From contig JACPMA010000016.1 of assembly GCA_016186205.1 (NCBI GenBank), positions 30,978 through 94,977 of the forward strand: DNA of 64,000 nucleotides, read 5' to 3'. The notes beneath the pieces were generated by a model. That model did no database searches and had not been told where the DNA came from. It saw only the letters and a list, made by a program, of their open reading frames with translations. Numbering within the stretch: the stretch's first letter is position 1; the number at the start of each line of letters is the position of its first letter. This stretch comes from Candidatus Peregrinibacteria bacterium (GTDB lineage Bacteria; Patescibacteriota; Gracilibacteria; UBA1369; UM-FILTER-53-11). This document shows positions 18,565 to 32,407 of this stretch, piece after piece. Made by a program: the position numbers and the translations under genes.

Positions 18565-18646
18565 CGATGTTTATTATACCATAATTTGAACAACTTTTCA
18601 ATCTGGCCATGCGCGTGCGAAAAATCAGTATTGGTATACTAAAACT

Positions 18647-19135
18647 ATGAATCCATATAAAAAGGTTTTTTCCGAATTGCAAAAATCAGGAGTCAAATAT
18701 TTAGTGGTCGGCGGTGTTGCGGTGAATCTCTATGGTTATAGTCGTTTTACTGGAGATATTGATATTTTGCTCACACTTGATTCTTCGAATTTATCAAAAA
18801 TGGAAAAGGTAATGAAAAAATTGGGATATGTAGAACGTTTGCCGGTTCAACTGCATGAATTGAAAGATAAAAAAAAGGTAAAAAAATGGCTTAAGGAGAA
18901 GGGGATGACCGCATATACTTTTATTTCATCAAAAAAACCGCAGCTTGATATCGATATTTTGGTTGGATATTCGCTGGATTTTAAAAAGTTTTACAAAAAC
19001 AGAACTGTTATAAAAGTGTGGGGAATGAATCTGTCCGTAATTTCTTTTGATGATTTGATTTTGATGAAAAAGAAGGCTGGAAGAGAGAAGGATTTGCTCG
19101 ATCTTCAAGCTTTGCTAGAATTAAAGTCGCTATGA
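18647..19135 (+). CDS. Minimal nucleotidyltransferase-fold protein (MNT-like)
   Basis: 162 aa. N-terminal LVVGGVAVNLYGYSRFTGDIDILL matches the G[GS]-x(9-13)-DxD pattern of the nucleotidyltransferase fold. A TGGTATACT extended -10 lies 6 nt upstream of the ATG. Confidence 0.55.
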   Translation: MNPYKKVFSELQKSGVKYLVVGGVAVNLYGYSRFTGDIDILLTLDSSNLSKMEKVMKKLGYVERLPVQLHELKDKKKVKKWLKEKGMTAYTFISSKKPQLDIDILVGYSLDFKKFYKNRTVIKVWGMNLSVISFDDLILMKKKAGREKDLLDLQALLELKSL

Positions 19136-19266
19136 AGACGAAAATTCCGCAATTTGATAAAGATTATTTGCGGCGATGCAAACACAGTTCGCCAGAGACA
19201 AAATTGAAGTGGCTTGCGGCCGCGCTTGACTTTGCTCAAACAAAAAAGAAAACTGTGAAGAAGTGA
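19132..19266 (+). CDS. 44-aa ORF translationally coupled to the MNT-like gene
   Basis: Below the ORF-track size cut-off. Its ATG overlaps the upstream TGA (ATGA). Product: MKTKIPQFDKDYLRRCKHSSPETKLKWLAAALDFAQTKKKTVKK. Confidence 0.35.
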   Translation: MKTKIPQFDKDYLRRCKHSSPETKLKWLAAALDFAQTKKKTVKK

Positions 19267-19379
19267 AAGCGCGCCATTGATCGGAGATAACTATAGGGGA
19301 GATGAGAGCCAGTATGCCCAGAGTTACCAGAAGCGTGAAAATGTTTGAGCCTAAAGTTTCCGAAACAGCGACCTCGATT

Positions 19380-20771
19380 CTATCCCTCAAATGAACACCA
19401 TTCAATAAGTTTTTCAGGATTTTTTCTCCATTCGCCTTCCCATTTTTCCATGACCCAGCGCCCCGGAGATTTTTCATGCACAAAAACAAATTCTTTTATT
19501 GGCTTGAGGTAGATTGATTCATCTTCATTCTTCTCATTCAATATCTTAAAAGATTGAAGATTTGAAGTTGCAATTTCAAGAATTTGCTTACAATAATCCA
19601 GTAATTTTTTACCACGCAACGCAGCAAACATGCCGTTTTTAGCTATATCTTCTCCAATCATGCAGAAATCCATAAAACTCCAATCTTTGGTTAATTGCGT
19701 TATTAGCCGTTCACCGTCGGGATGGTAGACAAATGCTTTTACGACTGCTTGCAAAGAAGGAATGAGGAACGGCGGCAGACTGTCGCATACGCGCAGTTCC
19801 ATATACTGTTTTATTCTTATATCGGTATAAATAAAACTTACGTGGAGGATCCAGTCATCCAAAGTTGGACGAAATCCTCCGTATCCATTTTTCATAAATC
19901 CAGCGAACGTAGTATTTTTAATTGGTATCCATTTTTCATCACGGAATATCGTCACCATAGGAACTTTTTTACAAAAATCAATCCATTCCTTGAAACCGAA
20001 ATTTTTACTGAAGAAAATTTTTCGAATCCCAAACCGACGGCGATCCAGTTTTCTCAAAATATGAGTCCGATAACTCACGAACCCCGTATTCACCCCGTCT
20101 TTCAGCGGAGAATGGGCATACATGGCGCCTATAAAAGGCGCCAATCGAAGGAGAATATGGCATTTCCGCCTCGCGTCTTCTTCGGAGGTATAGTCAATAT
20201 TTGCTTGGATTGAACAGAGTTTATGCCAAGTTTCCGTCCATAGTTTTGATTTGCGTCTGAAAAAATCTTCCAAAATATTGAATCGATTGAGTGGAGTTCG
20301 TCTATGCTTTACCGGATCACTTTTGAATGGTTGATATCCCATGCCAAACCACACAACATCAAAAATTTGCGACATTTCCGAAAGTTCGTGCTGGTGAATT
20401 CTAAGCTCGCGCGCTAGATCGTGAATTGACGTATGGGTTCTGCCGGACAGTTCGCAAACGTCTTCGCAGTATTCAAGAGTCAAACGGCTTTCCCCCCGGC
20501 TCATTGATGTAATATAGGCACCTTCTTCGCGCTCCGCGACCCAATTAAGCTCCTCAATAAGTTTTTTTTGGATATTCTGAAAACCGTTGGGGTCAAGATA
20601 AGTAACAGGCTGAAGATTATTTCTGCGAATTCCGTGTTTTTCTACTTCCATTCCAATTTTCACTTCTTCCGGTTTTTTACATCCTGCTTTGTAGTATTCA
20701 AGCAGGTCATTTTCGGATATTGGTATTTTTGAAGCGAATTGTTGATATTGTGAATTTGGCTGATAGCCCAT
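19380..20771 (-). CDS. Glutamate--cysteine ligase family protein (GCS2 / plant-type-like)
   Basis: 463 aa. KIGMEVEKHGI (cf. GTEHEKFGF) and LTLEYCEDVCELSGRTHTSIHDL (cf. [21 protein letters not shown]), recalled from plant-type GCL. Not verified by search. Confidence 0.5.
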   Translation of the reverse strand: MGYQPNSQYQQFASKIPISENDLLEYYKAGCKKPEEVKIGMEVEKHGIRRNNLQPVTYLDPNGFQNIQKKLIEELNWVAEREEGAYITSMSRGESRLTLEYCEDVCELSGRTHTSIHDLARELRIHQHELSEMSQIFDVVWFGMGYQPFKSDPVKHRRTPLNRFNILEDFFRRKSKLWTETWHKLCSIQANIDYTSEEDARRKCHILLRLAPFIGAMYAHSPLKDGVNTGFVSYRTHILRKLDRRRFGIRKIFFSKNFGFKEWIDFCKKVPMVTIFRDEKWIPIKNTTFAGFMKNGYGGFRPTLDDWILHVSFIYTDIRIKQYMELRVCDSLPPFLIPSLQAVVKAFVYHPDGERLITQLTKDWSFMDFCMIGEDIAKNGMFAALRGKKLLDYCKQILEIATSNLQSFKILNEKNEDESIYLKPIKEFVFVHEKSPGRWVMEKWEGEWRKNPEKLIEWCSFEG

Positions 20772-20995
20772 ACGAAACGTACCTTAATAAAATAATGGGG
20801 AGGAGAAATCCTTAGGATGTTTTCTTGCGCCGACTTGATTAGAATTTAATTTTAGGTTTTTTTGGAAAAAAAACAATAGACTCAAAATAAATTGTATTTT
20901 TGTCTAATCTGCATTACAGAATAGTCAGAATTAATGATTAGTTTTTGGCAATATTCTTATGATTGCGAAAATTTGTGTATATATTATGATGCACC

Positions 20996-21394
20996 TCATC
21001 CGGATTGTTGTCGGCGCTTTTCAATACGGCGAAGCTCTTTGTCTGTGAATCCAAAATGATGACCGATCTCATGCCAAACAACATCACGCACAAGTTCTTT
21101 GAGCGAATAATCGTCTGTCGCGAGGCTTTCTATGGATTGTTTAAAGATAGTTATCTTGTCAGGTAAGACGCCGCTTTGAGTTTTCCCCCATTGCGTCTGC
21201 GGTACTCCTTCATAGAGGCCGAGCAGCACTCCACGATTCCCAATTGCAATTTCATTAGTGTGTTTTTTTCGCGGGGAATTTTCAATGACAATCGCCACAT
21301 TAGAAACGGCGTCGCGAAGTTTTTTAGGGAGTGATGAGAGCGCGGCAGCAACGAGTTTTTCAAATCGCAATGTATCCACTATGTCATTGTACAT
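20996..21394 (-). CDS. Small zinc metallopeptidase-family protein (Zincin_1/DUF1025-like)
   Basis: 132 aa with C-terminal VVWHEIGHHFGFTD (HExxH). Abuts the upstream tspO-like gene. Confidence 0.6.
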   Translation of the reverse strand: MYNDIVDTLRFEKLVAAALSSLPKKLRDAVSNVAIVIENSPRKKHTNEIAIGNRGVLLGLYEGVPQTQWGKTQSGVLPDKITIFKQSIESLATDDYSLKELVRDVVWHEIGHHFGFTDKELRRIEKRRQQSG

Positions 21395-21793
21395 TTATTT
21401 CCAATTTATAGCCGTAATGGTGAGCTGGAGTACTGTTGCAAAAGACACCCAGAAAAAATAGGGTACATTTATTAATGCTATCCATTTTCTGTGAGGATAC
21501 ATGACAAGCAGAGCCCATATGAGTGTTGCAAGAACTAAGATTATATCGACTGCGGCGAGAATATTATTTTGAAGGCCGAATTGAATTGGCGTAAAAGCGA
21601 AATTAAAAATAAGATTGAGAATAAACGGCAGGATGGTAGAAAATGGGATTTTACGTTTGAGGAAAAGGTATCCGGTAAACCCAAAAGAAACCGCAATAAT
21701 AAAATAAAGCACCGTCCATACGGGACCAAAGAGCCATGAAGGTGGTGCCCATGTAGGTTTTATTAACTGCTGATACCAATCGTAGGTGCTCAT
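21395..21793 (-). CDS. tspO: TspO/MBR family tryptophan-rich sensory protein
   Basis: 132 aa, 4-5 TM helices, N-terminal WYQQLIKPTWAPPSWLFGPVWTVLY signature. Confidence 0.75.
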   Translation of the reverse strand: MSTYDWYQQLIKPTWAPPSWLFGPVWTVLYFIIAVSFGFTGYLFLKRKIPFSTILPFILNLIFNFAFTPIQFGLQNNILAAVDIILVLATLIWALLVMYPHRKWIALINVPYFFWVSFATVLQLTITAINWK

Positions 21794-22024
21794 GATGGTA
21801 TTTTACACTAAAACAACGGCGCCAAAAGAGGCTGGCGCCTTGCCTACCGGCAGGCAGGCGCCACCATGGATTTGCAGAAGTTTTCAACTTGGCTCCCCCT
21901 AGCGGACGATTTGCGAACTAAGTGTTATGAAGCAATTCTGCTTTTAAGTAGGAATTTGAGGTGTAATCAAAATGCAATAGAGCCCGTTCTTTGATAAAGT
22001 AAGAAAGTTCAGTAATCTCTCAGT

Positions 22025-23026
22025 ATGCACTTAAAGGTTAATGAAGTTGTAGATATTAGCGGGTGGGAGTTTTTGGCTATTCCAATTGGTCTTGGAACAA
22101 GAGAAAAAATTGCAGTGCGAAAAACTCAAAAAGCAAAAGTATACTACATGGTAAAATCATATGATAAAGATGTAGGTGAATTGAGATCTGAAGTTTGCGC
22201 CTCGATCATAGGGAAACTTTTTGATTTTTCCGTTCAAAAATCTTTTTTATGTAAAATTCCTGATTATAAAAAACATGGATTTTCTCAGAATTTAGGTGTC
22301 TTAATACGCTTAGACATAACACGTCAACGAGATCCTCGAAATGAATCTTCACAATATAAGGAAGATCTTATTCATGGTGCCGACTTGATTAGTAGGGTAG
22401 CGCCTGATTTTCTTAAAATTCCAATAGGCGAGGAAGGCATGCGGAGGAAAATGTATACTTTGGAAGTGGTCATAAAAGCTCTTAGGGAATATGTTAGAAA
22501 AAATCCCCAAGCAGCGAAAACCATATGGATTGAGTTTTTTGAATTGACGGCTTTTGATGCTTTGATTGGAGGTACGGACAGACACTATCGTAATTGGGGG
22601 ATACTCCTTAATATAGAAAAAAATAAGAGATCATATCGAAAATTAGCACCAGCTTTTGATAATGGTATTAGTCTTCTTTGGAGAGATTCAGTTAGGTTAC
22701 GCAATCTTAATGAAAAATCGGTACGTGCTGCACCGTCGGCTTTTCGTAAGCCTCTAGGTGGACAGTATACGTTATTCGAGGTGTGCGAAATTCTTGGAAA
22801 AATTCCAGAGGTAAGAAAAAATGGTGCTGCAAAATTAGTTTTGGATAAATGTAATTCTGTGTCAGAAAATAAGCTTAAAGATGCAATTTTAAACAAAATG
22901 CCTCGCGATAAAAGTTTTGAATCAGATGAGAAAGTGCTAGCACAAATTTATGAATATGTTAAAATGAGGTTCCGAATATTGAAAGAAATTTTAAATAAAA
23001 TATATGCCCCCGCGGATATACTATAA
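22025..23026 (+). CDS. HipA-family serine/threonine kinase lacking N-subdomain 1 (HipT-like toxin)
   Basis: 333 aa. Catalytic loop GGTDRHYRNWGIL (DxHxxN) and Mg-binding LAPAFDNG, as in the HipA C-terminal kinase domain. Confidence 0.7.
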   Translation: MHLKVNEVVDISGWEFLAIPIGLGTREKIAVRKTQKAKVYYMVKSYDKDVGELRSEVCASIIGKLFDFSVQKSFLCKIPDYKKHGFSQNLGVLIRLDITRQRDPRNESSQYKEDLIHGADLISRVAPDFLKIPIGEEGMRRKMYTLEVVIKALREYVRKNPQAAKTIWIEFFELTAFDALIGGTDRHYRNWGILLNIEKNKRSYRKLAPAFDNGISLLWRDSVRLRNLNEKSVRAAPSAFRKPLGGQYTLFEVCEILGKIPEVRKNGAAKLVLDKCNSVSENKLKDAILNKMPRDKSFESDEKVLAQIYEYVKMRFRILKEILNKIYAPADIL

Positions 23027-23306
23027 TGTAGTTTACAAAAATGGCACCACAACACGTGTTGCCGAGTTTATTAAGGAAGAAAATGGGGAATTCATTTTTA
23101 GGTATTTCCCCGAAAGTAAAATTGAATTCCCAGGCTTTCCATTAAATAAAAATGAATATCGCAGTGCGGTATTATGGGAACCAATTATTTTTCGAATTCC
23201 AAATACATTACGTAATCAATATTCAGACCGTTCCCCTGAAGAGATTTTAGAAATCACTCAAGGTAAATTAGTGACTGATCATTTTGAGTTCGTTAAGCAA
23301 CCTTAG
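23004..23306 (+). CDS. HipS-like protein (resembles HipA N-terminal subdomain 1)
   Basis: 100 aa. Overlaps the kinase gene by 23 nt. The pattern NGTTTRVAEFIKEENGEFIFRYFPE...FPLNKNEYRSAVLWEPIIFRIPN...EILEITQGKLVTDHFEF parallels E. coli HipA residues about 1-100 (recalled, not aligned computationally). Confidence 0.4.
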   Translation: MPPRIYYNVVYKNGTTTRVAEFIKEENGEFIFRYFPESKIEFPGFPLNKNEYRSAVLWEPIIFRIPNTLRNQYSDRSPEEILEITQGKLVTDHFEFVKQP

Positions 23307-23307
23307 G

Positions 23308-25872
23308 CTAAGCTAAAATCTCATTCATATCATTTTCAACATTGGCTTCTTCTATAAATCGAAATTCAGCCATCTTAGGTGTTCGTGGGAAAAGCTGATT
23401 ATCCTTCCAGCTCTTTTGGATTGGCCTTTGATAGAGTCGCGTTAAATGCCGTTTGTAGTTTGTGTCAGCATTTCCAAGTAGGTGACCTCCTTTTGTTTCG
23501 ATGAGGCATATTTTGTCGAAAATTTCGCGCCCATTGCCTAGAGTGATAATAAAATCGGGGTAGAAGCGATTCTTTTTCCACGCTACGAGATAAAAGTCTT
23601 TTTTGGCTTTATTGCGATACCACCAGACAGTTTTTTTGCTGTCTTCCATACGCCATAACGCTTTATCTTCAAGATTATTTAGGTCTCCACCAATAACTGG
23701 ATCGTAGAGGCTTTTTTCGACCGATAGTTTTCTTCTAACTTCTTTTTCAAAGAAGTAATCCGCTTGAAGCACATCCAGGCCAAATTTGGGAACAAAACGA
23801 ATCTCATCACTAGCAAGTTTTTTCACAAATAATTCTCGGGCTAAGCGGTTAATTTCACCCTCTTCTTCACCGGTACCGCTTAAAATTTTACGAAGTTCAT
23901 CCAATAGAAAAATTTGATTTTTCTCAATCTCTTCATCTGAAAAATGCTTTTTTAATAAAACTAAAGCGTTTGAAATAATTTCTTCTGCCACCCAAGGATT
24001 AGGTACCTGCTCAAGGATATTTTGAACCCAAAAACTTTTTCTAATCTTTGTGTGAAATTTGCTCCTAGTGCGCTTTTCTTGCAGTTCAAGAAATTCTTCC
24101 ATATCTTCAGCGAACTCCCGTGTAAAGCCGATGGATACGGTTCTTTCTACAGCCTCACTTTCTGGATTTATGTGTACTTTTTTGAGGTTTTCCAATTTCA
24201 CTTTGCTGTAATCAATTTCTGCAAAAATATCCAAAGTTGGATCTAGCACGCGCGTGCCATCGGGTGAACGCTTATCTTGAACTACAAAAGTAGGAAGCGC
24301 AAAATCTTGCAAGCTTTTCTCAAAACGTTTACGCAAAGTTTGTTTTTTGCGTTCACCAAGTTCTGGATCGAATTTTCCTGAAGCAGAGGAGATACGCTGC
24401 ATAAGGTCTCCCATTCCGTCGTATTCAAACCCTGTCCTGATAGCTTTAATGAGTTCTTTAGATGAATCTCTTAGGCAAAACACATAGCTTTCGTCCAAAT
24501 CTTTAATCTTGGTCTTTCTAGCATACGGCTGACGTAGAACACGGCCTGTAAGCTGCGTTAAGGCTGTTTTAGAGCGAGAGCCACCTAAAACCGTCAAAGA
24601 GTAGGCAAAAGGACAGTCCCAGCCCTCCTGTAGGGCTTGTTTCGTAATTATGAATCGAATCGGGCAGGTGCTTGAAAGCAGGTCTTTGTTTTCAATGTCG
24701 TTTTTAATACTGCTCTTAATAGCTATTTCATCTTCGCGCACAAGTCCAGTGGCAATGAGATGCTCTTTAACATCGTCTGCATGAATTTTGCCTTCCTTGC
24801 GCTGATCCTTGCCCGTTGCTTCAACTTGAATTAAATTGATAGGCCGGATGTAAACGCCGGTATTTTTTTTGTATTTTTCCGCATGTAATTGAAGATTGTT
24901 TAAGTGCTCAATGGAATAATTAACAAGGCTTTTCCATTCAATCGTATCTTTTTCAATTAAATTTAGATCCAGTTTTATCATCTCTTCTTTTTCAAGTTCA
25001 CGGCCAGCAACAGAAAATAACACATTAGCCGTGTCTGTAGGAGTTGCTGTGAGCTCGCAAACGCAAGCGGGGTTACATTCTGTGATAGCACTGCTCGCAA
25101 GTTCGCTTTTTGCCTTATGCCCCTCATCCAAAATAATTAACGGCTCAAGTATTTTAACGACATTTCCAAATGAGGTTTTTACTTTGACCCCGAAGAGTGA
25201 GCCTTCTGTAGTTTCTTGATCGAGGTTTGGGAAGAACTCTAAAAGAGCTTTCTGTTTTTTCTGATCGCTCTCAAGAGGAAAGAACTCATCGAATTTTCCA
25301 TTGTCTTGAAAAAACTTTAGGTCGTCTTTTTTTATTTTATCTCTGGAAAATGATTGAAGAATCATTACGAGGACGACAAGATTTTCCTCGATATCGTTTG
25401 GAGTAAATTTTTCTTTTTTAGTCACAATCTTTACGCGATTGCCAGATATGGCATCTAACCGTTCGCGGTATGGATGTGCTCGATCTTTGAGCGCGGCAAG
25501 CGTTTGAGAGTAAATTTGTTCACTCGGTACAACCCAAAGAACAAAGCCTGTTTTCTTTTTACGAAGATGCTCTAAATAGAACTCTACCGCATAGGTTGCT
25601 AGGAGTGTTTTTCCTCCTCCTGTGGGTATTTTAAGGCAAAAGTTAGGGCATGGTTTGTTGTGTCCGGTGCGCTTATTTCTGCATGTATGATTTTCGTTGC
25701 CTTCGGTAAATAATCTATGCCATGCCTTTTCCGCTGGATTGATTTCATTACCCCATTTTTTTAGCACTTCTTTAGGGATTTTTTTAAAATCATTTTGTTC
25801 ATCGGCAAGCACTTGGAAATATCTATCCATCGCGTTCTTACAGTTGAGCTGATATTCCTTAAGCGTGTGCAT
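23308..25872 (-). CDS. res: Type III restriction endonuclease, Res subunit
   Basis: 854 aa. Helicase motif I PTGGGKT, motif II LDEGHKA, later QEGWDCP, and a C-terminal PD-(D/E)xK-like YPDFIITL...LIETKG. Sits immediately downstream of mod. Confidence 0.8.
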   Translation of the reverse strand: MHTLKEYQLNCKNAMDRYFQVLADEQNDFKKIPKEVLKKWGNEINPAEKAWHRLFTEGNENHTCRNKRTGHNKPCPNFCLKIPTGGGKTLLATYAVEFYLEHLRKKKTGFVLWVVPSEQIYSQTLAALKDRAHPYRERLDAISGNRVKIVTKKEKFTPNDIEENLVVLVMILQSFSRDKIKKDDLKFFQDNGKFDEFFPLESDQKKQKALLEFFPNLDQETTEGSLFGVKVKTSFGNVVKILEPLIILDEGHKAKSELASSAITECNPACVCELTATPTDTANVLFSVAGRELEKEEMIKLDLNLIEKDTIEWKSLVNYSIEHLNNLQLHAEKYKKNTGVYIRPINLIQVEATGKDQRKEGKIHADDVKEHLIATGLVREDEIAIKSSIKNDIENKDLLSSTCPIRFIITKQALQEGWDCPFAYSLTVLGGSRSKTALTQLTGRVLRQPYARKTKIKDLDESYVFCLRDSSKELIKAIRTGFEYDGMGDLMQRISSASGKFDPELGERKKQTLRKRFEKSLQDFALPTFVVQDKRSPDGTRVLDPTLDIFAEIDYSKVKLENLKKVHINPESEAVERTVSIGFTREFAEDMEEFLELQEKRTRSKFHTKIRKSFWVQNILEQVPNPWVAEEIISNALVLLKKHFSDEEIEKNQIFLLDELRKILSGTGEEEGEINRLARELFVKKLASDEIRFVPKFGLDVLQADYFFEKEVRRKLSVEKSLYDPVIGGDLNNLEDKALWRMEDSKKTVWWYRNKAKKDFYLVAWKKNRFYPDFIITLGNGREIFDKICLIETKGGHLLGNADTNYKRHLTRLYQRPIQKSWKDNQLFPRTPKMAEFRFIEEANVENDMNEILA

Positions 25873-25874
25873 AT

Positions 25875-27461
25875 TTATTCGGCCATTCGATAAATTTCAA
25901 ACGGGAGTTGAGCGAAACGGATGTTAAATTCCTTGAGATGGTAGTCTTCCATGAAGCAGGCAGGTGCAAAGACAAGTTTCTGACGAGCGGGGAACTGTTT
26001 ATGGATTCTTTCGGCAAAATCTAAATTGAGTGCCATTTCCTTTAATTTCTTTTTGTCTGGACTGTAAATAAGAAAAACTTCAAAAGTGCTTGATGAGCCT
26101 ATATGAAAAGTTTTTTCATTAAGTTTCTTGGCGTTAAATTTTTCACCAGTTGCAGTAAAGAATGCGTATTTTGACAAGTCTTCAAAGCTCGGGAGTTTTC
26201 TACATTCAAGAAGGTGCTCCATGTTTATTTCTTCTCCTAGTTCGTAAAACGAAAAGCTACCACCAAGGCCAGATTTTAGGGCTTCGTCTGCAGCATTTGG
26301 TATGCCTTTAATTACTCGTCTCATGCGTTCGGCAGTGATTTTGTCTGCATAATCTTCGCATTCAACTAGAATGAATTGACGATTGCCATCATCTTCTTTA
26401 TTTAGAGCTAAAACAGCGTGGCCTGTGGTTCCTGAGCCAGCAAAAGAGTCGAGGATCACGTCGTCTTTGGTCGAACTGATTGAAATTAAATGATAAATTA
26501 ATTCTATAGGTTTTGGATTATCAAATATCTCCGGCTCACCAAAAATTTCTGTTAGCATACTTTGTGCACTATCTGTACTGCCATGGTCGTCTAGTAGATT
26601 TGGCTGTGATGAATAGGTGTCCACGTCCTCGAAATCATATATTTTTAATTTTATGACATTGCCATCAATTATGAATCTTCCATTGGCTTCTAGTCCACGG
26701 GCTTTTTTCTCGCCAATTTGCCATCTTTTACCAGCTCTTGGTTTTTTTCCTAATATTTCAAATTGCATTGTTGCTCTGGCATAACTGCCGGCATTCTTTT
26801 TTTCAATAATTGTTAGTCTATAGTTTCCGAGCTTATCTTTGTGTGGATACTCTCTTGTCTCTTTTGATCTTATTCTTTGCAAAAGTTTTGCATTACCTGA
26901 CTTGCCATATACAAGTGTGTAATCCACCAAAGAGCTAACCGATGCCTCTTTCACATTTGTAGATGTTGCCTTTTTTTTCCAAAGAAAATCAGCAATAAAA
27001 TTATCTTCGCCAAAAATTTCGTCCAGCATTGATCGAAGGTGATGAAATTCATTATCATCGATGCTTATGAAAATAATCCCGTCATCTTTTAGAAGTTCAC
27101 GTAAAAGAGTAAGTCGTGGATACATCATGCAAGCCCATTTGTCGTGTCGCGTAAGATCGTCCCGTGCAACGACTTTTCCGAGCCATTCACGAATCATCGG
27201 GGAAGCCACATTGTCATTGTAGATCCAGTTTTCATTGCCAGTGTTGTACGGAGGATCAATATAAATACACTTAATTTTGCCTGCATGAGTTGGAAGTAGG
27301 GCTTTGAGTGCTTTTAAGTTATCTCCATGAATAATGAGATTGTCGTCTAGAGAGGGAGATTTACTAAGCCCCTTAGTCTTTTGAGTGACCAGATTGTGAA
27401 ATTTAACTGCGTGATGGTAGTTTTGGAGGAATGTTTTTCCCTTGAAGTGAAAAGAAGGCAT
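25875..27461 (-). CDS. mod: Type III DNA methyltransferase, Mod subunit (beta-class N6A/N4C)
   Basis: Motif IV IYIDPPYNTG precedes motif I ILDSFAGSGTTGHA, with a variable region between them. This is the typical Mod order. Confidence 0.85.
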   Translation of the reverse strand: MPSFHFKGKTFLQNYHHAVKFHNLVTQKTKGLSKSPSLDDNLIIHGDNLKALKALLPTHAGKIKCIYIDPPYNTGNENWIYNDNVASPMIREWLGKVVARDDLTRHDKWACMMYPRLTLLRELLKDDGIIFISIDDNEFHHLRSMLDEIFGEDNFIADFLWKKKATSTNVKEASVSSLVDYTLVYGKSGNAKLLQRIRSKETREYPHKDKLGNYRLTIIEKKNAGSYARATMQFEILGKKPRAGKRWQIGEKKARGLEANGRFIIDGNVIKLKIYDFEDVDTYSSQPNLLDDHGSTDSAQSMLTEIFGEPEIFDNPKPIELIYHLISISSTKDDVILDSFAGSGTTGHAVLALNKEDDGNRQFILVECEDYADKITAERMRRVIKGIPNAADEALKSGLGGSFSFYELGEEINMEHLLECRKLPSFEDLSKYAFFTATGEKFNAKKLNEKTFHIGSSSTFEVFLIYSPDKKKLKEMALNLDFAERIHKQFPARQKLVFAPACFMEDYHLKEFNIRFAQLPFEIYRMAE

Positions 27462-27487
27462 ATCGGCTCATTACATCTTTGAACCGA

Positions 27488-27648
27488 GTTCCTTTCGTAT
27501 ACCGCAAGAGAAGGGAACCCAGCTGCCGACTCACATTCAGTTACCAACAAAGGCACCCGATAGCGAGTTGCTGGGTCCCCCTCCTTACCCGTTATCGGGA
27601 GGAAGGGATTTCCCCAGCCTTTGTAAGTAATACGAATTGTGAGTCGGC
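27488..27648. other. GC-rich, highly structured non-coding element inside the island (function unknown)
   Basis: Hairpin 27488-27496/27510-27518. Nested helices follow: GCCGACTCACA(27525-35)/TGTGAGTCGGC(27638-48), ACAAAGGC(27547-54)/GCCTTTGT(27617-24), CCCGATAGC(27556-64)/GTTATCGGG(27591-99). The only ORF here (27479..27745) looks spurious. Confidence 0.5.
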
Positions 27649-27744
27649 ATCGAAAATTCTACCACGCACAACAAATAGAAGCCAAAACCGAATTCATTTT
27701 TATCTCAAAAAACGCTATTATTGGCTTTGTTTAATGAAAAAGTA

Positions 27745-28938
27745 ATGACCGAATTTAATATTAGAAAAATAGATAGTAAATTGCTCTTTCTGGTGAAGTC
27801 CTTAATAGGTGATTATAAAGAATCACAAGAGAAAGACAGCTCTACTCATCGCGGGGAAAAGTTTTTCAGTTTTATCGGTTTTGGCCATACCGACTCTTTA
27901 TGGAAGAAGATGCCCGATGAGGAATGGAGTGCGTATCTCACTAGTTTGTGTGTGGAGTATGGAATAATTAGAGAAATATATTTTGATATTCTTGATGAAG
28001 AGCGGGATACAGAAAACCCGATTAAATCAAAACATTATAAGTATGCTGGATCGGCTGAGTTTGAAGATTTTTTTAATTTTGGCATTTCAGCAGGCCGTGA
28101 CAATACAATATTTTGTTCAATAGATTTGAATTGCGAAAAAGCAAAGAGTTTTTTTGATGAATATTTGTTGAATTGGCTTAACGATAATTTGTTTAAGGAA
28201 AAGAAGAATCTGTTAAAAGCGGAAAAACAAATTGAGAAAATAATTGAAGATATTTATGCGCTTTTAGATCAGCATCCCGATAGAAATTTATTGGTACAGG
28301 AAAATATACTTCACAAAGAAGATATAGATTTTATTGCCGTCATGTACTTTTTAGAAAAAATGAAATACTTAGAAATATTAAATGTCGACGCTGGACAGTT
28401 TGAATATTGGATCATGCGTGTAAATATAAGTAAAAAATTCTATGAAGATTTTGAACGAGAAGGATGGATATTGAGCAATATAAAGTTTGATTTTAACTAT
28501 CTAAAAACAGGTAAAAAAACAACAATGAACAAAAAGGAAGATTTAGGAGAAATTATACAACAAAATAAAAAAGTACAGTCTCGTAAAACAGGTATAGAAA
28601 ATGAAATTGGTTTTTATAAGAACATTTGTACGGATTTTAAAGAAGGGAAGATTTGGATTGCTGGTAAAAGTAAGAAATCAAAAATGGCCGATTCTAAAAT
28701 GAGAAAACTATGGAAACTGCTTTTATTAAATGTAGGCGATGTATTCTCCTACGACAGAATCGCAACTGGATTGAATCTTACCAAGCAAATGGGACTTAAT
28801 CGTCTATCTTGTATTGAAAATTTGGCTCAAACAAAGAAAAATCTTATAGAGAGAATAGCGAAACTAGGTATTGATAGAAGCGTAGTGTCAGATTGGTTTA
28901 TTGATAACAATGGTTATGGATTGAAGAAAGAGGGGTAA
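27745..28938 (+). CDS. Hypothetical protein with a C-terminal OmpR/CadC-like winged-helix DNA-binding region
   Basis: First ATG in frame is at 27745 (the track start 27721 is TTG). The C-terminal segment KMRKLWKLLLLNVGDVFSYDRIATGL...NLIERIAKLGIDRSVV...NNGYGL resembles a Trans_reg_C winged helix. Confidence 0.5.
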   Translation: MTEFNIRKIDSKLLFLVKSLIGDYKESQEKDSSTHRGEKFFSFIGFGHTDSLWKKMPDEEWSAYLTSLCVEYGIIREIYFDILDEERDTENPIKSKHYKYAGSAEFEDFFNFGISAGRDNTIFCSIDLNCEKAKSFFDEYLLNWLNDNLFKEKKNLLKAEKQIEKIIEDIYALLDQHPDRNLLVQENILHKEDIDFIAVMYFLEKMKYLEILNVDAGQFEYWIMRVNISKKFYEDFEREGWILSNIKFDFNYLKTGKKTTMNKKEDLGEIIQQNKKVQSRKTGIENEIGFYKNICTDFKEGKIWIAGKSKKSKMADSKMRKLWKLLLLNVGDVFSYDRIATGLNLTKQMGLNRLSCIENLAQTKKNLIERIAKLGIDRSVVSDWFIDNNGYGLKKEG

Positions 28939-28989
28939 CAAGAAGATAACCAGAACTTAACCGTTGCAATTAGTTAGACTGACTTTGTC

Positions 28990-29008
28990 AGCCGTTCAGC
29001 GGCTTTTT
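28990..29008 (+). terminator. Rho-independent terminator-like hairpin
   Basis: AGCCG-ttcag-CGGCT followed by TTTTT, about 50 nt after the stop of the 27745..28938 gene. The stem is only 5 bp. Confidence 0.4.
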
Positions 29009-29158
29009 GACGTATCTAAATTATGGAAAGCCCCTACGAAAAATTAGTTGGTCGCAAACTTAAGCAGGAAGAGATTAAAAAAATGAGTTCTGATCTCGTG
29101 GGTTATTTCCAACTTTTAATCGCAGTCGACAGACAAACAACTGCCGACCTACTTAATT

Positions 29159-29473
29159 ATGAAAAAGAACGAAATCGTAATAACTGAAATTCAGATTGTG
29201 CCGATAAAGCCACAGGACGGGCTCATCGGTTTTGCAAGTTTCGTCCTGAATGGGTGCTTGTACCTAGGGTCGATCGGCATCCACACACGATTGGATGGAA
29301 GTGGGTTCCGTCTAACGTATCCCACAAAGGGTGCAATAAATATATTTCATCCAATCAACAAAGAAGTTTCCAAAGCAATTGAGGAAGCTGTTTTTGCTAA
29401 AGCTGAAGAAGTAATGAATTTTAACGATACACGTAATGATCGACACCGTGAGGCTGACTTTATTCAAAGATAA
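29159..29473 (+). CDS. SpoVG-like nucleic-acid-binding protein
   Basis: 104 aa. ITEIQIVPIKPQDGLIGFASFVLNGCLYLGSIGIHTRLDGSGFRLTYPTK...IFHPINKEVSKAIEEAV parallels the SpoVG core (recalled B. subtilis SpoVG). Confidence 0.6.
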   Translation: MKKNEIVITEIQIVPIKPQDGLIGFASFVLNGCLYLGSIGIHTRLDGSGFRLTYPTKGAINIFHPINKEVSKAIEEAVFAKAEEVMNFNDTRNDRHREADFIQR

Positions 29474-30578
29474 GTTCCGCATCTTCAAACCAGAGCTTTT
29501 TCATCCCCATGCTCACATTTTAGATGATCACATTCCTTATGGAGTACCCAAAGTCGATTGTTATCAAAATTCATCAAAAGCAGTCATCGCAAAAGGACTC
29601 TGCATGATAAAGCTCAGTGCAGTTAAACGCTTTGTTAAGGGTGGAGTTCAAACGACATTAACCGTGGAATTTTCGGCCCCGAAGCTAGTTTACGGAAACA
29701 ACCTTGATGAGCTTGAGCAAGGAGATTTTATTACAGTGCTAAAGATATTATGTAATCGCTTATCAAATGAAATGGGTGTTGTTGTAAGTGAAGAAGATCT
29801 GAAAGCAGCAACAGTCAGTGCAATACATTTTTCAAAAAACATTTCTTTTGTCGATTACACAACAGTAAATAGCATAATAAATTATACAAGGAAGATCAAT
29901 TTAACGAAAAGATTCGATCTAAATGAAACGAAGTTTCGCAATGAAGGATTAACTATTTATCATCACTCAAAATCTCTTCAATTTATTCTATACGATAAAA
30001 TCCGTGAGATGCAGAAGGTTAACGGAAGGGGAATCGAAGAAAATGTGCAATTGCATCTCGATATACTCGGTGAAGTAGAGAGTGCACACAAAGAACCTCT
30101 CGAAGTTTTACGGTCGGAACTTAGGATTTTGAAAAGACCCAAATTGAGGTCAATGTTGAAAAAAATTGGTGAACCCTACATAGAAACCTTCGAGGAATTT
30201 TTCAGTAAACGGCTTTCTCAAAAAATGCTTCAGCAATATTGGAATTTTATTATTGAAAAATTAAAACCGGTTATTTTTGCGGAAGATTTTACTCCACAAG
30301 AAGTTGTGAAATTAATATTACAGCAAAATCGACGAATCAAGCCTCAAGCTGCGTTGAGCTTGATCGGGATTTTTTACGCCATAAAGCACATAGGAATACG
30401 GCCGCTAAAAACAATGTTAAATACCTACTTTAATGCACGATCATGCAGCAGATTATTAAGCCAAATCAACGACTTTGAATTTCCTCAAAGCAGTCGATTT
30501 GAGCCATTTAACCATATTAGTAAGGCACTTTCAGAGTTTAAACCACTCAAAATGAAAGATTTGACCTTACCATTCTAA
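29436..30578 (+). CDS. Putative replication initiation protein (phage/plasmid gene II / Rep-like)
   Basis: 380 aa. The N-terminus MIDTVRLTLF resembles the MIDxLxL start of filamentous-phage/plasmid rolling-circle initiators. It sits between the SpoVG-like and recombinase genes. Weak assignment. Confidence 0.35.
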   Translation: MIDTVRLTLFKDKFRIFKPELFHPHAHILDDHIPYGVPKVDCYQNSSKAVIAKGLCMIKLSAVKRFVKGGVQTTLTVEFSAPKLVYGNNLDELEQGDFITVLKILCNRLSNEMGVVVSEEDLKAATVSAIHFSKNISFVDYTTVNSIINYTRKINLTKRFDLNETKFRNEGLTIYHHSKSLQFILYDKIREMQKVNGRGIEENVQLHLDILGEVESAHKEPLEVLRSELRILKRPKLRSMLKKIGEPYIETFEEFFSKRLSQKMLQQYWNFIIEKLKPVIFAEDFTPQEVVKLILQQNRRIKPQAALSLIGIFYAIKHIGIRPLKTMLNTYFNARSCSRLLSQINDFEFPQSSRFEPFNHISKALSEFKPLKMKDLTLPF

Positions 30579-30608
30579 CTTTATTATTATAATCTAACAT
30601 CATAATTT

Positions 30609-32147
30609 ATGAATGAAATTATTGAAAAAATATTGGAAAAATTAGCACTCGGATTAGCCCGAGTTTCAACCGAAGAGCAGGAAGATGGGCATACGATTCC
30701 CGCTCAAGTTCAGCGAATAAATGATTATGCAGCACAGAAAGGCCTAACCCTTGAAAAAGTTTTTGAGCTAACGGAATCGTCCACAAAAGCAGACAGGAAA
30801 AAATTCTGCGAGCTCTTTGAAATCATTAAACGCAGTAAAATTCCTGTAATTTTAATTGTTGAAACGGTGGACAGGCTGCAGCGTAGTTTTAGAGAATCCG
30901 TTGAGCTCGATGCTTTAAGAAAAGATGGAAAACTCGAAATCCACTTTTTACGAGAAAATCTTGTTATCAACAAGGATTCCAACAGCGTAGATATTATGCG
31001 CTGGGATCTCGCTGTTTTTGTCGCAAAGACTTACGTATTGCAGTTAAGCGACAATGTAAAACGCAGCTTGGAACAAAAGCTCCGCAACGGTGAATGGATT
31101 GGAAGAGCCCGCGTCGGATATTTGAACATTGATCTTCCGAACGAAAAGAAATCAGTAGTTCTTGATCCAGACAGGGCTCCACTCATAAAAAAAGCATTTG
31201 AATGGTATTCAACAGGGAATTATTCGACGAGCCAAATAACAACAATGCTTAAAGAGGCTGGACTCACCAATAATACGCCTAAGAAAGCCATCCTCAATAA
31301 AAGCACCGTAGCGGAAATGCTACAGGAACCTTTTTACTACGGTGAAATGAGGGTGAAGGGTAAACACTATCCTCATAATTATGAGCCTATTGTGGCACGT
31401 TGGTTATTCGACAAATGTCAGCAAGTACGTGAGGGCTGGCATAAAAAGCCTTTTAAGACTGGAGAAACTTTTTATGCCTTTAGAGGCCTAATTAAACACG
31501 ACTGCGGATGTTTACTCACTCCGTACACGAAAAAGGGAATTGTATATTTGAAGTGCTCGAAGTATCGCGGTAACTGCCAAGGGGTTAGTGTGAATGAAAA
31601 AGATTTGATTAAAGAACTTGCCGAGATTTTTCGTGTTATGCGTCCTCCAGATGATGTGGTGGAGGACGTTAAACAGCAATTACGCAGCAGCCATGAAAAT
31701 GAACAACGATTTTATGAGTCGAACATTCAACGTATCAACAAAGGACTTGCTACGATCAAACAGCGTTTCCAGCCCGCCTATGAGGACATGCTGGATGGCC
31801 GTATTACGAGGGACGAACACGACAAATTGGTGCAGAAATGGAAGCAGCAGGAAAGAGACCTCTTACTTCAACTTGAGGATCATTCAAAAGGGGATGAGCA
31901 GTTTTACATCACGGCTTCTTACCTGTTAGATATTTCAAAACGAGCACAGGAACTTTTCCTGCGTTCGCAACCGGAGCAAAAACGACAATTTTTGAATTTC
32001 GTACTTGCGAACTTAAGTTTGGAGGGCAAAAAGCTCGGCTACAAGCTGAAAGAACCATTTGCGGCTATGCACGAAATGGGTATTCGTATGAATTGGCTCC
32101 GGAGGTCGGACTCGAACCGACAACCCACTGGTTACACGAATCCTTAA
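30609..32147 (+). CDS. Large serine recombinase (integrase)
   Basis: 512 aa. Resolvase catalytic domain with LARVSTEEQ (catalytic Ser), recombinase domain, Cys-rich zinc-ribbon-like segment (CGCLLTPY...LKCSKYRGNC) and a coiled-coil tail. The last 54 nt overlap the tRNA-Asn 3' exon on the opposite strand. Confidence 0.85.
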   Translation: MNEIIEKILEKLALGLARVSTEEQEDGHTIPAQVQRINDYAAQKGLTLEKVFELTESSTKADRKKFCELFEIIKRSKIPVILIVETVDRLQRSFRESVELDALRKDGKLEIHFLRENLVINKDSNSVDIMRWDLAVFVAKTYVLQLSDNVKRSLEQKLRNGEWIGRARVGYLNIDLPNEKKSVVLDPDRAPLIKKAFEWYSTGNYSTSQITTMLKEAGLTNNTPKKAILNKSTVAEMLQEPFYYGEMRVKGKHYPHNYEPIVARWLFDKCQQVREGWHKKPFKTGETFYAFRGLIKHDCGCLLTPYTKKGIVYLKCSKYRGNCQGVSVNEKDLIKELAEIFRVMRPPDDVVEDVKQQLRSSHENEQRFYESNIQRINKGLATIKQRFQPAYEDMLDGRITRDEHDKLVQKWKQQERDLLLQLEDHSKGDEQFYITASYLLDISKRAQELFLRSQPEQKRQFLNFVLANLSLEGKKLGYKLKEPFAAMHEMGIRMNWLRRSDSNRQPTGYTNP

Positions 32148-32407
32148 ATTTCTTTAAGGGGTGGACTATATCTTTATCCGCAAAAGTGTGCACGTGCACA
32201 CTTTTGTGAGGACATCTTGGTATCTAGTCTCTACGGCGCCCCCTCACATTTTGCGATCCCGCAAAAGGCGAAGGGTTCCCACGGTATTACCCGGTCTGTA
32301 CGTACAGACTTTGGGCTTCACCGTTATCCCAAGAAGTTTCAACCTAAGTTGCCTTAGGAAGCTGCGTAATTTCACAGCCAGTTGCTCTACCATTGAGCTA
32401 CTCCGGA
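32094..32407 (-). tRNA. tRNA-Asn(GUU), split by a group I intron (exons 32374-32407 and 32094-32134)
   Basis: The joined exons give a 75-nt cloverleaf: UCCGGAG UA GCUC AAUGGUA GAGC A ACUGG CUGUUAA CCAGU GGGUU GUCGG UUCGAGU CCGAC CUCCGGA G CCA. U1-A72 and G73 match E. coli tRNA-Asn. Confidence 0.85.
32135..32373 (-). ncRNA. Group I intron (239 nt, no ORF)
   Basis: P1: exon GGCUGU pairs with intron GCAGCU, with a U.G wobble at the 5' splice site. P2 is CCUAAG-GCAA-CUUAGG. P3 is CUUGG/CCAAG. P4 is ACGGU/ACCGU. P6 is UUUUGCG-GGAU-CGCAAAA. Core GUAGAGACUAGA with P7 GACUA/UAGUC. P8 is a 13-bp hairpin. P9 is CCUUAAA-GAAA-UUUAAGG. The terminal nucleotide is G. Confidence 0.8.

Follow-up and report, generated by a model that had tools for sequence, protein, structure and literature searches.

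A 10.2-kb element at the tip of the tRNA-Asn gene of a Candidatus Peregrinibacteria bacterium and the split reading frame of its large serine integrase

What is the tract of about 10 kb that ends on the tRNA-Asn gene of this Candidatus Peregrinibacteria bacterium, and how might it have come to lie there? The window, by which we mean the whole 64,000-nt stretch that was analyzed, is taken from assembly GCA_016186205.1 (contig JACPMA010000016.1, positions 30,978-94,977, forward strand), and all coordinates below refer to it. A sequence-only reading had proposed a serine-recombinase island bounded by an 8-bp direct repeat, and both copies of that repeat (TTGGCTCC) were located, at 21889-21896 and 32093-32100 on the + strand. 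We consider it very probable that 21889-32100 is an integrated 10.2-kb element, placed at the tip of tRNA-Asn by a large serine integrase. The island belongs to a very common family, and a precedent for it has been published.

The repeat by itself contributes little to this conclusion. The sequence-only reading had named a common 8-mer as grounds against it, and TTGGCTCC is indeed common genome-wide (37 copies versus 42 expected) and occurs three times in the window versus 2.06 expected, the third copy being at 1684. The 3' 60 nt of the tRNA also have 11 further 8-mers in common with the 21 kb upstream. Because of this chance-level frequency and the 11 other shared 8-mers, the 8-bp repeat taken alone carries no statistical weight. 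The two copies do mark attL and attR as proposed, but eight base pairs are not a core of the tyrosine-integrase type. Support for the att boundaries comes instead from the integrase reading frame, the mimic of the tRNA in the left arm, the relatives, the composition and the assembly graph. We regard the boundary as real because the integrase frame is split, the left-arm tRNA mimic is in register and contigs break beside the core.

The target is a tRNA-Asn(GUU) gene containing a group I intron (32094-32407, - strand), identified from its Rfam match, its exons and its orthologues, and it is the sole tRNA-Asn gene of the genome. Rfam RF00028 matched 32142-32384 with 55.5 bits (gathering score 50). 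The intron spans about 32135-32373, and joining the exons produces the anticodon loop CTGTTAA, identical to that of intron-less orthologues in the same syntenic place, where it reads as Asn GTT. ARAGORN missed the tRNA in its default mode and, with introns allowed, called it Thr(tgt); the genome has a Thr(tgt) gene elsewhere. The placement of the second repeat copy on the CCA/acceptor end of an intron-containing tRNA-Asn was borne out: the attR copy takes in one base past the tRNA followed by CCA, G73 and A72-G70 in antisense, and the 3' arm of the tRNA forms the B' half of attB.

The gene next to the tRNA encodes, in its integrated form, a large serine integrase of 512 aa (30609-32147, + strand). 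A Resolvase catalytic domain (PF00239, 3.8e-17, residues 14-163) is followed by a Recombinase domain (PF07508, 4.7e-15, residues 187-275) and a weak zinc-ribbon match (PF13408, Zn_ribbon_recom, 0.0012) that, at 19.6 bits, falls below its cut-off of 25.3. Across 19 homologues, A17, R18, S20 and Q24 were invariant, as were C299 and C316, with C323 nearly so. The protein matched a PHROG integrase family (4.5e-61), and the integrase profile matched the TP901-1 catalytic domain at 1.3e-11; the single protein had no matches in a search of the PDB. These domains agree with the serine recombinase that had been described as abutting the tRNA, and the reading frame in fact runs 54 nt into the tRNA 3' exon, in antisense.

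The last 15-17 codons of the integrated gene are antisense tRNA. When the frame is read instead across the core into the left end of the island, it stays open for 33 codons (WLPLADDLRT...), and the reconstituted frame encodes 529 aa. Judged by sequence, this left-end frame is the native tail of unsplit relatives, which in IMG/VR and the protein set carry WLPNSSNVRT..., WLPLLDSFRTFWK and WGALWDVFRT. Using a matrix built from other loci and scored on the stop-free 12-mers of the window, the tail 12-mer WLPLADDLRTKC ranked 2nd of 81,568; without the two columns encoded by the core it ranked 62-64 of 81,568. For the one frame fixed beforehand, the in-frame tail has a p of about 8e-4. The integrase gene spans attP, as it does throughout the family. 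Peptides of the W-x3-DSN type, which correspond to antisense tRNA, form the C-terminus of nearly all of the approximately 70 homologous proteins inspected.

At attL, a host-side arm (B, 21859-21888, + strand) precedes the core copy at 21889-21896, and the element-side arm (P', 21897-21994, + strand) contains the detached native tail in the integrase frame, ending in PLADDLRTKCYEAILLLSRNLRCNQNAIEPVL and a stop. The P' arm has TGGCTCC and CGGAC in register with the tRNA arm, and GAAC at positions 25-28 versus 20-23 in the tRNA. Intersecting the attL/attR identity blocks across several loci bracketed the probable crossover dinucleotide to GCTC (21892-21895 and 32096-32099, tRNA positions 71-74) and no more narrowly; the remainder of the 8-bp identity is the element's mimic of the tRNA. 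At ten other loci, attL arms lie 8-11 kb upstream of attR with GAAC again at 25-28 versus 20-23, and in the L053/L054 element it is one base further out (26-29, a 6-bp shift). The inner part of the arm covaries with the target, being CGGAC for Asn here and TGGAT for Gln in L054. In the LI integrase, the outer motif is 5 bp nearer the center in attB than in attP (PMC3783163), and the window has the same 5-bp attP/attB shift; there is little symmetry between the P and B arms. The outer-arm DNA motif scores 7.9 at the site, which is outside the top matches and not discriminating alone, and attL calls at other loci, taken singly, have scores no higher than the null maxima.

Composition agrees with the A+T-rich interior noted earlier. 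The GC content of the island is 0.379, compared with 0.450 +/- 0.019 for genome windows of 10.2 kb, which puts the island in the lowest 0.9%. By tetranucleotide distance it ranks in the top 0.8%, and the composition breaks at the boundaries. At the left end, accessory genes give way to cellular ones over a distance of 130 bp. The left flank (17401-21888, 4.5 kb) is low in GC too, at 0.396, which counts against the island reading.

The integrated form was found at 100% identity in all six samples. Contigs from four samples break no more than 1-2 bases from the outer edge of the core, at a node that coincides with the B arm (21859-21888): contig ends lie at 21887, 21887 and 21888, and the starts of other contigs at 21859. 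With a precise empty site, the graph should branch at 21896 rather than 21888, so simple excision does not explain the observed branch. No circular junction or exact empty site was seen on the contigs examined, and no IMG/VR contig had an attP junction. At least 10 relatives have the tRNA-Asn without an integrase, and relatives of other genera have the same tRNA-Asn without the island. No isogenic empty site, with tspO next to the tRNA, was found.

Only accessory genes had been read between the repeats, and the Pfam and PADLOC scans bore this content out. The SpoVG-like, Rep-like and integrase genes form a backbone, and the cargo is made up of a HipA-like pair and the two genes of a type III restriction-modification system. 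The SpoVG-like protein (104 aa, 29159-29473, + strand) matched Pfam SpoVG at 1.5e-5, with 25.5 bits falling below the cut-off of 29.6, and the Rep-like protein (380 aa, 29436-30578, + strand) matched Phage_CRI at 6.5e-5, with 23.2 bits exceeding the cut-off of 21.7; both had been named in the sequence-only reading, as had the type III genes. These lie side by side in the same orientation, as expected of a type III system: Res (854 aa, 23308-25872, - strand; Pfam ResIII 1.8e-14, PADLOC REase_III 3.8e-154) and Mod (528 aa, 25875-27461, - strand; Pfam N6_N4_Mtase 3.5e-37, PADLOC MTase_III 3.6e-141). The other cargo pair consists of a HipA_C kinase-like protein (333 aa, 22025-23026, + strand; Pfam HipA_C 4.1e-10, PADLOC PDC-M03A 1.4e-25) and a 100-aa partner (23004-23306, + strand; PADLOC PDC-M03B 4e-7) that had no Pfam match. 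In PADLOC the pair corresponds to a two-gene candidate defence system, PDC-M03A/B. HipBST comprises the HipT kinase, HipS, which is the N-subdomain of HipA, and the repressor HipB, and no HipB-like gene was seen among the island ORFs and Pfam matches.

Between mod and a gene for a 405-aa protein (27721-28938, + strand) is a divergent intergenic region (27462-27720) with 70% mean column identity to the elements of G007 and L066. The 405-aa protein, a putative winged-helix protein in the sequence-only reading, has homologues at 26-34% identity in the same two elements and had no Pfam, PADLOC or PHROG match. A 54-aa ORF (29023-29187, + strand) was also predicted to be a gene on a Logan contig; its position makes it a candidate small regulator or directionality factor, and it had no family match in the PADLOC and PHROG scans. 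Large serine integrases require a recombination directionality factor for excision. None was recognized among the island proteins using Pfam, PADLOC and PHROG; there are only the unassigned ORFs of 54 aa and 88 aa. Relatives carry HTH_17 genes.

Excluding loci at contig ends, 55 of 73 GTDB homologue loci have a tRNA that converges on the integrase gene and overlaps or adjoins its 3' end. By target, these loci comprise Asn (25), Gln (12), Tyr (4), Leu (4), His (3), Arg (3), Pro (2), Glu (1) and Trp (1). SpoVG-like homologues were found in 39 of 86 integrase loci and Rep-like homologues in 32 of the 86, always just after the SpoVG-like gene. Many loci have the same compact backbone of SpoVG, Rep and integrase, at 8-11 kb. 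In a genus-level relative (G007), an element at the same tRNA-Asn encodes an integrase, a Res and a SpoVG-like protein with 78%, 85% and 82% identity to those described here, whereas the flanking methyltransferase is just 42% identical.

The closest published case, likened by arrangement, would be that of the Dehalococcoides ssrA islands and their integrase DsiB (McMurdie et al. 2011, PMC3146451). DsiB is an integrase of about 540 residues of the serine recombinase family, encoded at the island edge beside a tRNA-like gene. In every case the 3' end of the integrase gene overlaps att, antisense into the RNA gene, and the authors suggested that the gene is perhaps complete only on the circle. 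The far boundary of those islands is a direct repeat of the RNA gene 3' end, and they bear cargo genes and have a low GC content (PMC3146451). Here, too, the integrase 3' end overlaps att and runs antisense into the tRNA, and this holds across the family. The two differ in target (tRNA rather than tmRNA), in insertion point and repeat (positions 71-74 with 8 bp identical, rather than the T-loop with a 20-bp repeat) and in gene content, since the DsiB module has DsiA (a small serine recombinase), ParB, Mom and RecF-like genes, none of which is among the island proteins, whose backbone is SpoVG-like and Rep-like.

The order of resolvase, recombinase and putative zinc ribbon domains and the short att are shared with phage large serine integrases whose att recognition has been solved or modelled (Listeria A118/LI, TP901-1, phiC31, Bxb1, SPbeta), to which relatedness is recognizable by sequence in the catalytic domain only. 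As in LI, the outer motif is 5 bp further from the center in the attP half-site (PMC3783163), and the LI motif TTTAGTATC resembles TTTAGAAC of several relatives in the present family. Phage integrases usually target protein-coding genes and have attP beside the integrase gene; here it lies inside the gene. The island also resembles the tycheposons and cryptic tRNA-associated elements of Prochlorococcus, which are small integrative elements at tRNA genes that combine replication genes and a site-specific integrase with cargo for defence or adaptation; a large serine recombinase occurs in 27 of 937 elements (Hackl et al., bioRxiv 10.1101/2020.12.28.424599). They differ in being overwhelmingly driven by tyrosine recombinases and in their replication genes, which are of primase/helicase types, and no split integrase gene is described in the text consulted.

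We propose that recombination by the integrase took place between an attP located inside the 3' end of the integrase gene and an attB that would comprise the last ~25 nt of tRNA-Asn and about 25-30 nt downstream. In this account integration cut the integrase gene and left the 33-residue native tail (PLADDLRT...) at the far left end, and the integrated gene ends instead in 15 antisense-tRNA residues (RRSDSNRQPTGYTNP); excision would restore the 529-aa protein. The sole tRNA-Asn would stay intact because the element supplies its last few bases. The in-register P' arm with GAAC 5 bp out corresponds to the half-site geometry with which serine integrases distinguish attP from attB. The Rep, of the filamentous-phage gpII type, may drive rolling-circle replication of the excised circle, and the tail swap may have a regulatory role.

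It could be argued that the repeat arose by chance and that the island really begins at another place, as the 8-mer is at chance frequency, 11 others match and the arm matrix is not discriminating. The in-frame tail, the mimic in register, the accessory-to-cellular switch and the contig breaks 1-2 nt from the repeat make this very improbable. Somewhat less improbable, if still unlikely, is that the mobile unit is larger or composite, with 17401-21888 (a 387-aa protein, an AbiEii-like nucleotidyltransferase, GCS2, a zincin and TspO) as an older stacked island whose edge is the 21859 node. The flank has, along with its low GC, an AbiEii match in the nucleotidyltransferase, a tRNA-like fragment (18343-18410) and a TspO copy that is 62-66% identical to copies of other families but 27-39% identical to those of its own, and in G010 Fic/RhuM, RelE and AbiEii/AbiEi lie between tRNA-Asn and TspO. 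However, GCS2, the zincin and TspO are ordinary cellular genes, TspO is downstream of tRNA-Asn in several relatives and may be ancestral there, and the sequence further left showed neither another integrase nor a second tail-coding arm or tRNA-end repeat.

A degraded prophage or phage satellite, rather than an autonomous, integrative plasmid-like element, is suggested by IMG/VR contigs of 34-47 kb that carry family members with 34-40% identity, by the gpII-type Rep and by the PHROG integrase match. We think this quite improbable, given an island with no capsid, terminase, tail or morphogenesis gene, PHROG scans in which five of seven island proteins had no match and none matched a phage structural family, and the recurrence of the 8-11 kb backbone. 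A stronger contender, although we favor it less than not, accepts the boundaries but sees a fixed relic, a stable defence island whose tail-less integrase, lacking a directionality factor, no longer excises. The integrated form alone, at full identity across the six samples, the lack of an RDF-like gene in the scans and the absence of an attP junction from IMG/VR contigs are consistent with this. The left-end tail, however, is still open over 33 codons with the family motif kept, the backbone genes are all intact, and similarity to the element of the other genus far exceeds that of the flanking genes, which points to recent transfer. We judge the chances that the island is mobile today to be about even.

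For the element as an integrase-placed island, the tail swap could be a built-in switch, the full 529-aa integrase with its native WLPxxDxxRT tail being encoded only by the circle. We offer this as a speculative reading with a fairly low chance of being correct. Each change of target tRNA would have had to alter both the protein tail and attP, because the bound DNA arm encodes the tail. If this is true, the family would amount to a naturally occurring set of retargeted serine integrases whose attP arm is readable from the target tRNA, as the tRNA 3' arm, a 5-bp spacer and GAAC.

The 8-bp repeat TTGGCTCC was found at both positions from which an integrated element had been proposed, 21889-21896 (attL copy) and 32093-32100 (attR copy), and a third copy lies in the window at 1684. 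This observation is confirmed, and its interpretation as a serine-integrase element is supported. The sequence-only reading had held that an 8-mer common throughout the genome would make the repeat coincidental, and the 37 copies of TTGGCTCC in the 1.39-Mb genome, against 42 expected, agree with chance; the tRNA end and the 21 kb upstream of it also have in common 11 further 8-mers, a 9-mer and a 10-mer. The repeat alone could therefore be a coincidence by that measure, and we rejected it as boundary evidence. The attL/attR reading is nevertheless upheld by three lines of evidence, none of them dependent on the 8-mer, that place the left end at 21889, namely the tail frame of the integrase, a tRNA mimic and breaks in metagenome assemblies.

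The right copy lies, as claimed, at the CCA/acceptor end of tRNA-Asn, antisense to the 3' end of this minus-strand gene (32094-32407), whose 3' exon terminates in ...GGTTCGAGTCCGACCTCCGGAGCCA on the minus strand, so that CCA is encoded. The gene was undetected by ARAGORN in default mode, and when introns were permitted the tRNA was called Thr(tgt); Rfam identified a group I intron at 32142-32384 (55.5 bits, gathering score 50). Syntenic orthologues without the intron, which immediately follow the conserved SSB and methyltransferase genes, have CTGTTAA and agree with the window tRNA in their acceptor and T arms, and the genome already has a separate Thr(tgt) and no other tRNA-Asn. Asn is therefore the better supported identity. 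The intron contains a 20-nt palindrome, AAAGTGTGCACGTGCACACTTTT (32181-32201), that recurs on contigs C16, C4 and C15, with shorter matches on C18 and C1. In sample SRR12113385 one Logan contig begins at 32375 and another stops at 32403, so that a graph node falls on the 5' exon of the tRNA, no more than a base or two from the junction with the intron, and may represent an intron-less tRNA-Asn allele in the population. Fragments resembling the 3' arm of tRNA-Asn (TTCCGGAG..GGAGTCGAAACCG and TCGGACTCG) are also present at 18343-18410, within a 387-aa ORF on the opposite strand.

The island proteins were annotated with Pfam, PADLOC and PHROGs, and the accessory content previously listed was recovered: a HipA_C kinase-like protein with a 100-aa partner (proteins A and B of the PADLOC candidate system PDC-M03), type III restriction subunit (Res) and methyltransferase (Mod) by Pfam/PADLOC, a SpoVG-like protein (Pfam score under the cut-off), a Rep-like, Phage_CRI (gpII)-type protein (just over the cut-off) and a large serine integrase of 512 aa. 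A 54-aa ORF at 29023-29187 and a 405-aa protein with no match in Pfam, PADLOC or PHROGs complete the list, and no recombination directionality factor was recognised among the island genes. A further small ORF, of 88 aa, lies at 27479-27745. Between mod and the divergently oriented 405-aa gene, the intergenic region (27462-27720) has 70% column identity with the elements of two relatives, G007 and L066, both of which carry there the inverted repeat GGACGGCGTGG ... CACGCCGCCC; this region may serve as an origin or in regulation. The DNA between the repeats is indeed more A+T-rich, with a GC content of 0.379 compared with 0.450 +/- 0.019 for genome windows of equal length, and its tetranucleotide distance is in the top 0.8%. 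Beyond the right edge GC returns to 0.458, but the left flank (17401-21888) is still low at 0.396, and the left end is therefore not fixed by composition alone. This flank encodes an AbiEii-like nucleotidyltransferase and a TspO that is 62-66% identical to copies in other families and only 27-39% identical to those within its own family, and it may be an older acquired segment.

Among the candidates scored, 1809 homologues of the integrase were obtained at E <= 1e-30, and nearly all of the approximately 70 inspected had C-termini like NWLRRSDSNRQP, WLPGSDSNRRP or WCPGQDSNLRP. Such peptides are what a tRNA 3' end encodes when translated in antisense, with W derived from CCA and DSN from the T-loop. 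A convergent tRNA 3' end overlapped or abutted the 3' end of the integrase gene in 55 of 73 loci (those of 80 loci from GTDB genomes that were not at a contig end), and the commonest target was tRNA-Asn, with 25 loci. The hosts are mainly candidate-phyla bacteria, but include Chlamydiota, Alphaproteobacteria, Dependentiae and others; a metagenome scan with the single integrase protein gave only two loci, both distant. A PDB search with the whole protein returned no match, and its relation to a solved integrase is recognisable by sequence in the catalytic domain only. Outside the window, contig C10 of the same genome (5791-7384) carries a second large serine integrase, of 512 aa and 27% identical, whose 3' end convergently overlaps tRNA-Met(cat) and whose neighboring gene has a 68% identical counterpart in the G009 element (L017).

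When the integrase frame was continued across the core into the left end, it remained open for 33 further codons, WLPLADDLRTKCYEAILLLSRNLRCNQNAIEPVL, to a stop at 21992-21994. Comparable tails exist in unsplit relatives, including WLPNSSNVRTVIDLRPYLEKRAEIL... on IMG/VR contigs, WLPLLDSFRTFWK, WLAWRDSFRTFEW... and WGALWDVFRT.... A position matrix was built from tails at other loci and in unsplit proteins, and against it the window tail frame ranked 2nd of 81,568 stop-free 12-mers; without the two core-encoded columns it ranked 62-64th, which corresponds to p about 8e-4 because a single frame at a single position was fixed in advance. Scored with a nucleotide weight matrix that ten other loci gave for the outer attL arm, the window site did not stand out, and the case therefore rests on the protein-level tail test.

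The left end also resembles the tRNA. With position 0 set at the T of TGG (antisense of CCA), the tRNA arm is TGGCTCC GGAGGT CGGAC T CGAAC and the left-end arm TGGCTCC CCCTAG CGGAC GATTTG CGAAC, with the inner motif in register and GAAC 5 bp further out. Candidate attL sites of ten other loci, 8-11 kb upstream of attR, have GAAC at 25-28 versus 20-23 in the tRNA (the shift is 6 bp in L053 and L054), while the inner part of the arm tracks the target, being TGGAT for tRNA-Gln (L054) and CGGAC for tRNA-Asn in the window. This register is the attP/attB geometry of the Listeria LI integrase, whose zinc-ribbon motif is 5 bp nearer the center in attB than in attP (PMC3783163). Since GAAC doubles as the R-T codon pair of the conserved tail, constraint at the DNA level is inseparable from that at the protein level.

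Because attL and attR have to agree in the central dinucleotide, we compared their blocks of identity, which extend over positions -1 to 6 in the window, 2-5 in L054, 2-6 in L067 and L120, 0-5 in L064 and 2-7 in L063. These intersect at positions 2-5, GCTC (21892-21895 and 32096-32099; tRNA positions 74-71), so that the crossover would be GC, CT or TC. The best local symmetry is that of CT, with CC on both sides in all four half-sites, and CT may be the crossover dinucleotide. Whichever dinucleotide crosses, the final bases of the tRNA, with CCA among them, come from the element and the tRNA remains whole. A related element, at 1905-11500 of L053 (a Logan contig of SRR32844787), shares its attL arm exactly with L054, and its right end adjoins sequence that is not a tRNA (TGGCTCGGAACACTGGTTCCAAC); a secondary, tRNA-like integration site is suggested. 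In L117 (about 5558-5584) and L119 (about 5521-5538) the tRNA-Gln end is directly repeated over much greater lengths, 27/28 nt and 18 nt respectively, 5.9 kb upstream of attR, and L119 has two attL-like arms, at 4483 and 5972; stacked or decayed elements are suggested.

Logan contigs of SRR12113424 and -383 stop at 21887 and one of -384 at 21888, while others of SRR12113424 and -422 begin at 21859, the k-1 overlap expected of a branching node in a k=31 graph; contigs of SRR12113385 and -431 span the junction in the integrated form. This node (21859-21888), reproducible in four samples, reveals heterogeneity in the population beside the core. From an exact empty site a branch at 21896 would be expected, and the node fits neither a precise empty site nor a circle junction; the alternative path was not seen in the Logan contigs. 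Contigs from exact-protein look-ups (integrase, TspO, HipA-like protein, methyltransferase and SSB) were all of the integrated form or broken, with neither a circular junction nor an exact empty site among them, and the reconstituted attP junction was absent from IMG/VR. We put the chances that the element is still mobile today at about even.

Across the order the methyltransferase, tRNA-Asn and SSB are conserved, while the region past the tRNA is not. The comparison with related genomes yielded tRNA-Asn without an integrase in at least ten relatives, but the predicted empty allele, with tspO adjoining the tRNA, was not found by synteny: TspO is 4.6-19 kb downstream of the tRNA in four relatives, and others have it on the SSB side. 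In G002 (L019, contig C20), whose tRNA-Asn is unoccupied, about 60 nt right after CCA (about 2799-2860) resemble the integrase gene of G009 at its 3' end (GGCTTTTTGTAGTCTA.AAGCA) and look like a scar that a lost element left behind. In G010, Fic/RhuM, RelE and AbiEii/AbiEi genes lie between tRNA-Asn and TspO; the tRNA-Asn site is a hot spot for accessory genes in general.

In G007, from another genus of the same family, an element adjoins that genome's own intron-less tRNA-Asn, with identities to the window of 78% for the integrase, 85% for Res, 82% for the SpoVG-like protein, 64% for Mod and 47% for Rep, compared with only 42% for the neighboring methyltransferase. Its left end was not recovered, as the contig stops within res, and no HipA-like gene was found in that genome. 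The element of L066, a Peregrinibacteria MAG, has 80% identical Res, 58% identical Mod and an integrase only 45% identical; its left end, at the contig start, is unrecognisable. Since the restriction system is 80-85% identical on elements whose integrases are 45-78% identical, and related elements carry a Dcm/EcoRII-type system in place of the type III system, cargo has been swapped between backbones. The SpoVG-like and then the Rep-like gene occur together upstream of the integrase in 16 loci.

The closest published case is that of the Dehalococcoides ssrA islands, for which the authors raised the idea of an integrase complete only on the circle (PMC3146451). The arrangement was already described in 2011, and the window is a confirmation rather than a discovery. 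It differs in its tRNA target, in insertion at the acceptor end rather than the T-loop, in a repeat of 8 rather than 20 bp and in its companion genes (PMC3146451). A minority of tycheposons have large serine recombinases at tRNA genes, and the text of a large serine-integrase survey does not mention tRNA (PMC10083194). The island represents a cleanly delimited case of defence-gene movement in candidate-phyla bacteria, whose genomes are small and in which few mobile elements have been recognised. Its family provides dozens of natural attP/attB pairs for different tRNAs, consistent with the structural rule for attP/attB discrimination, that could aid the prediction of att sites for uncharacterised integrases, and its distinctive point is an attP arm that is simultaneously coding sequence and tRNA mimic.
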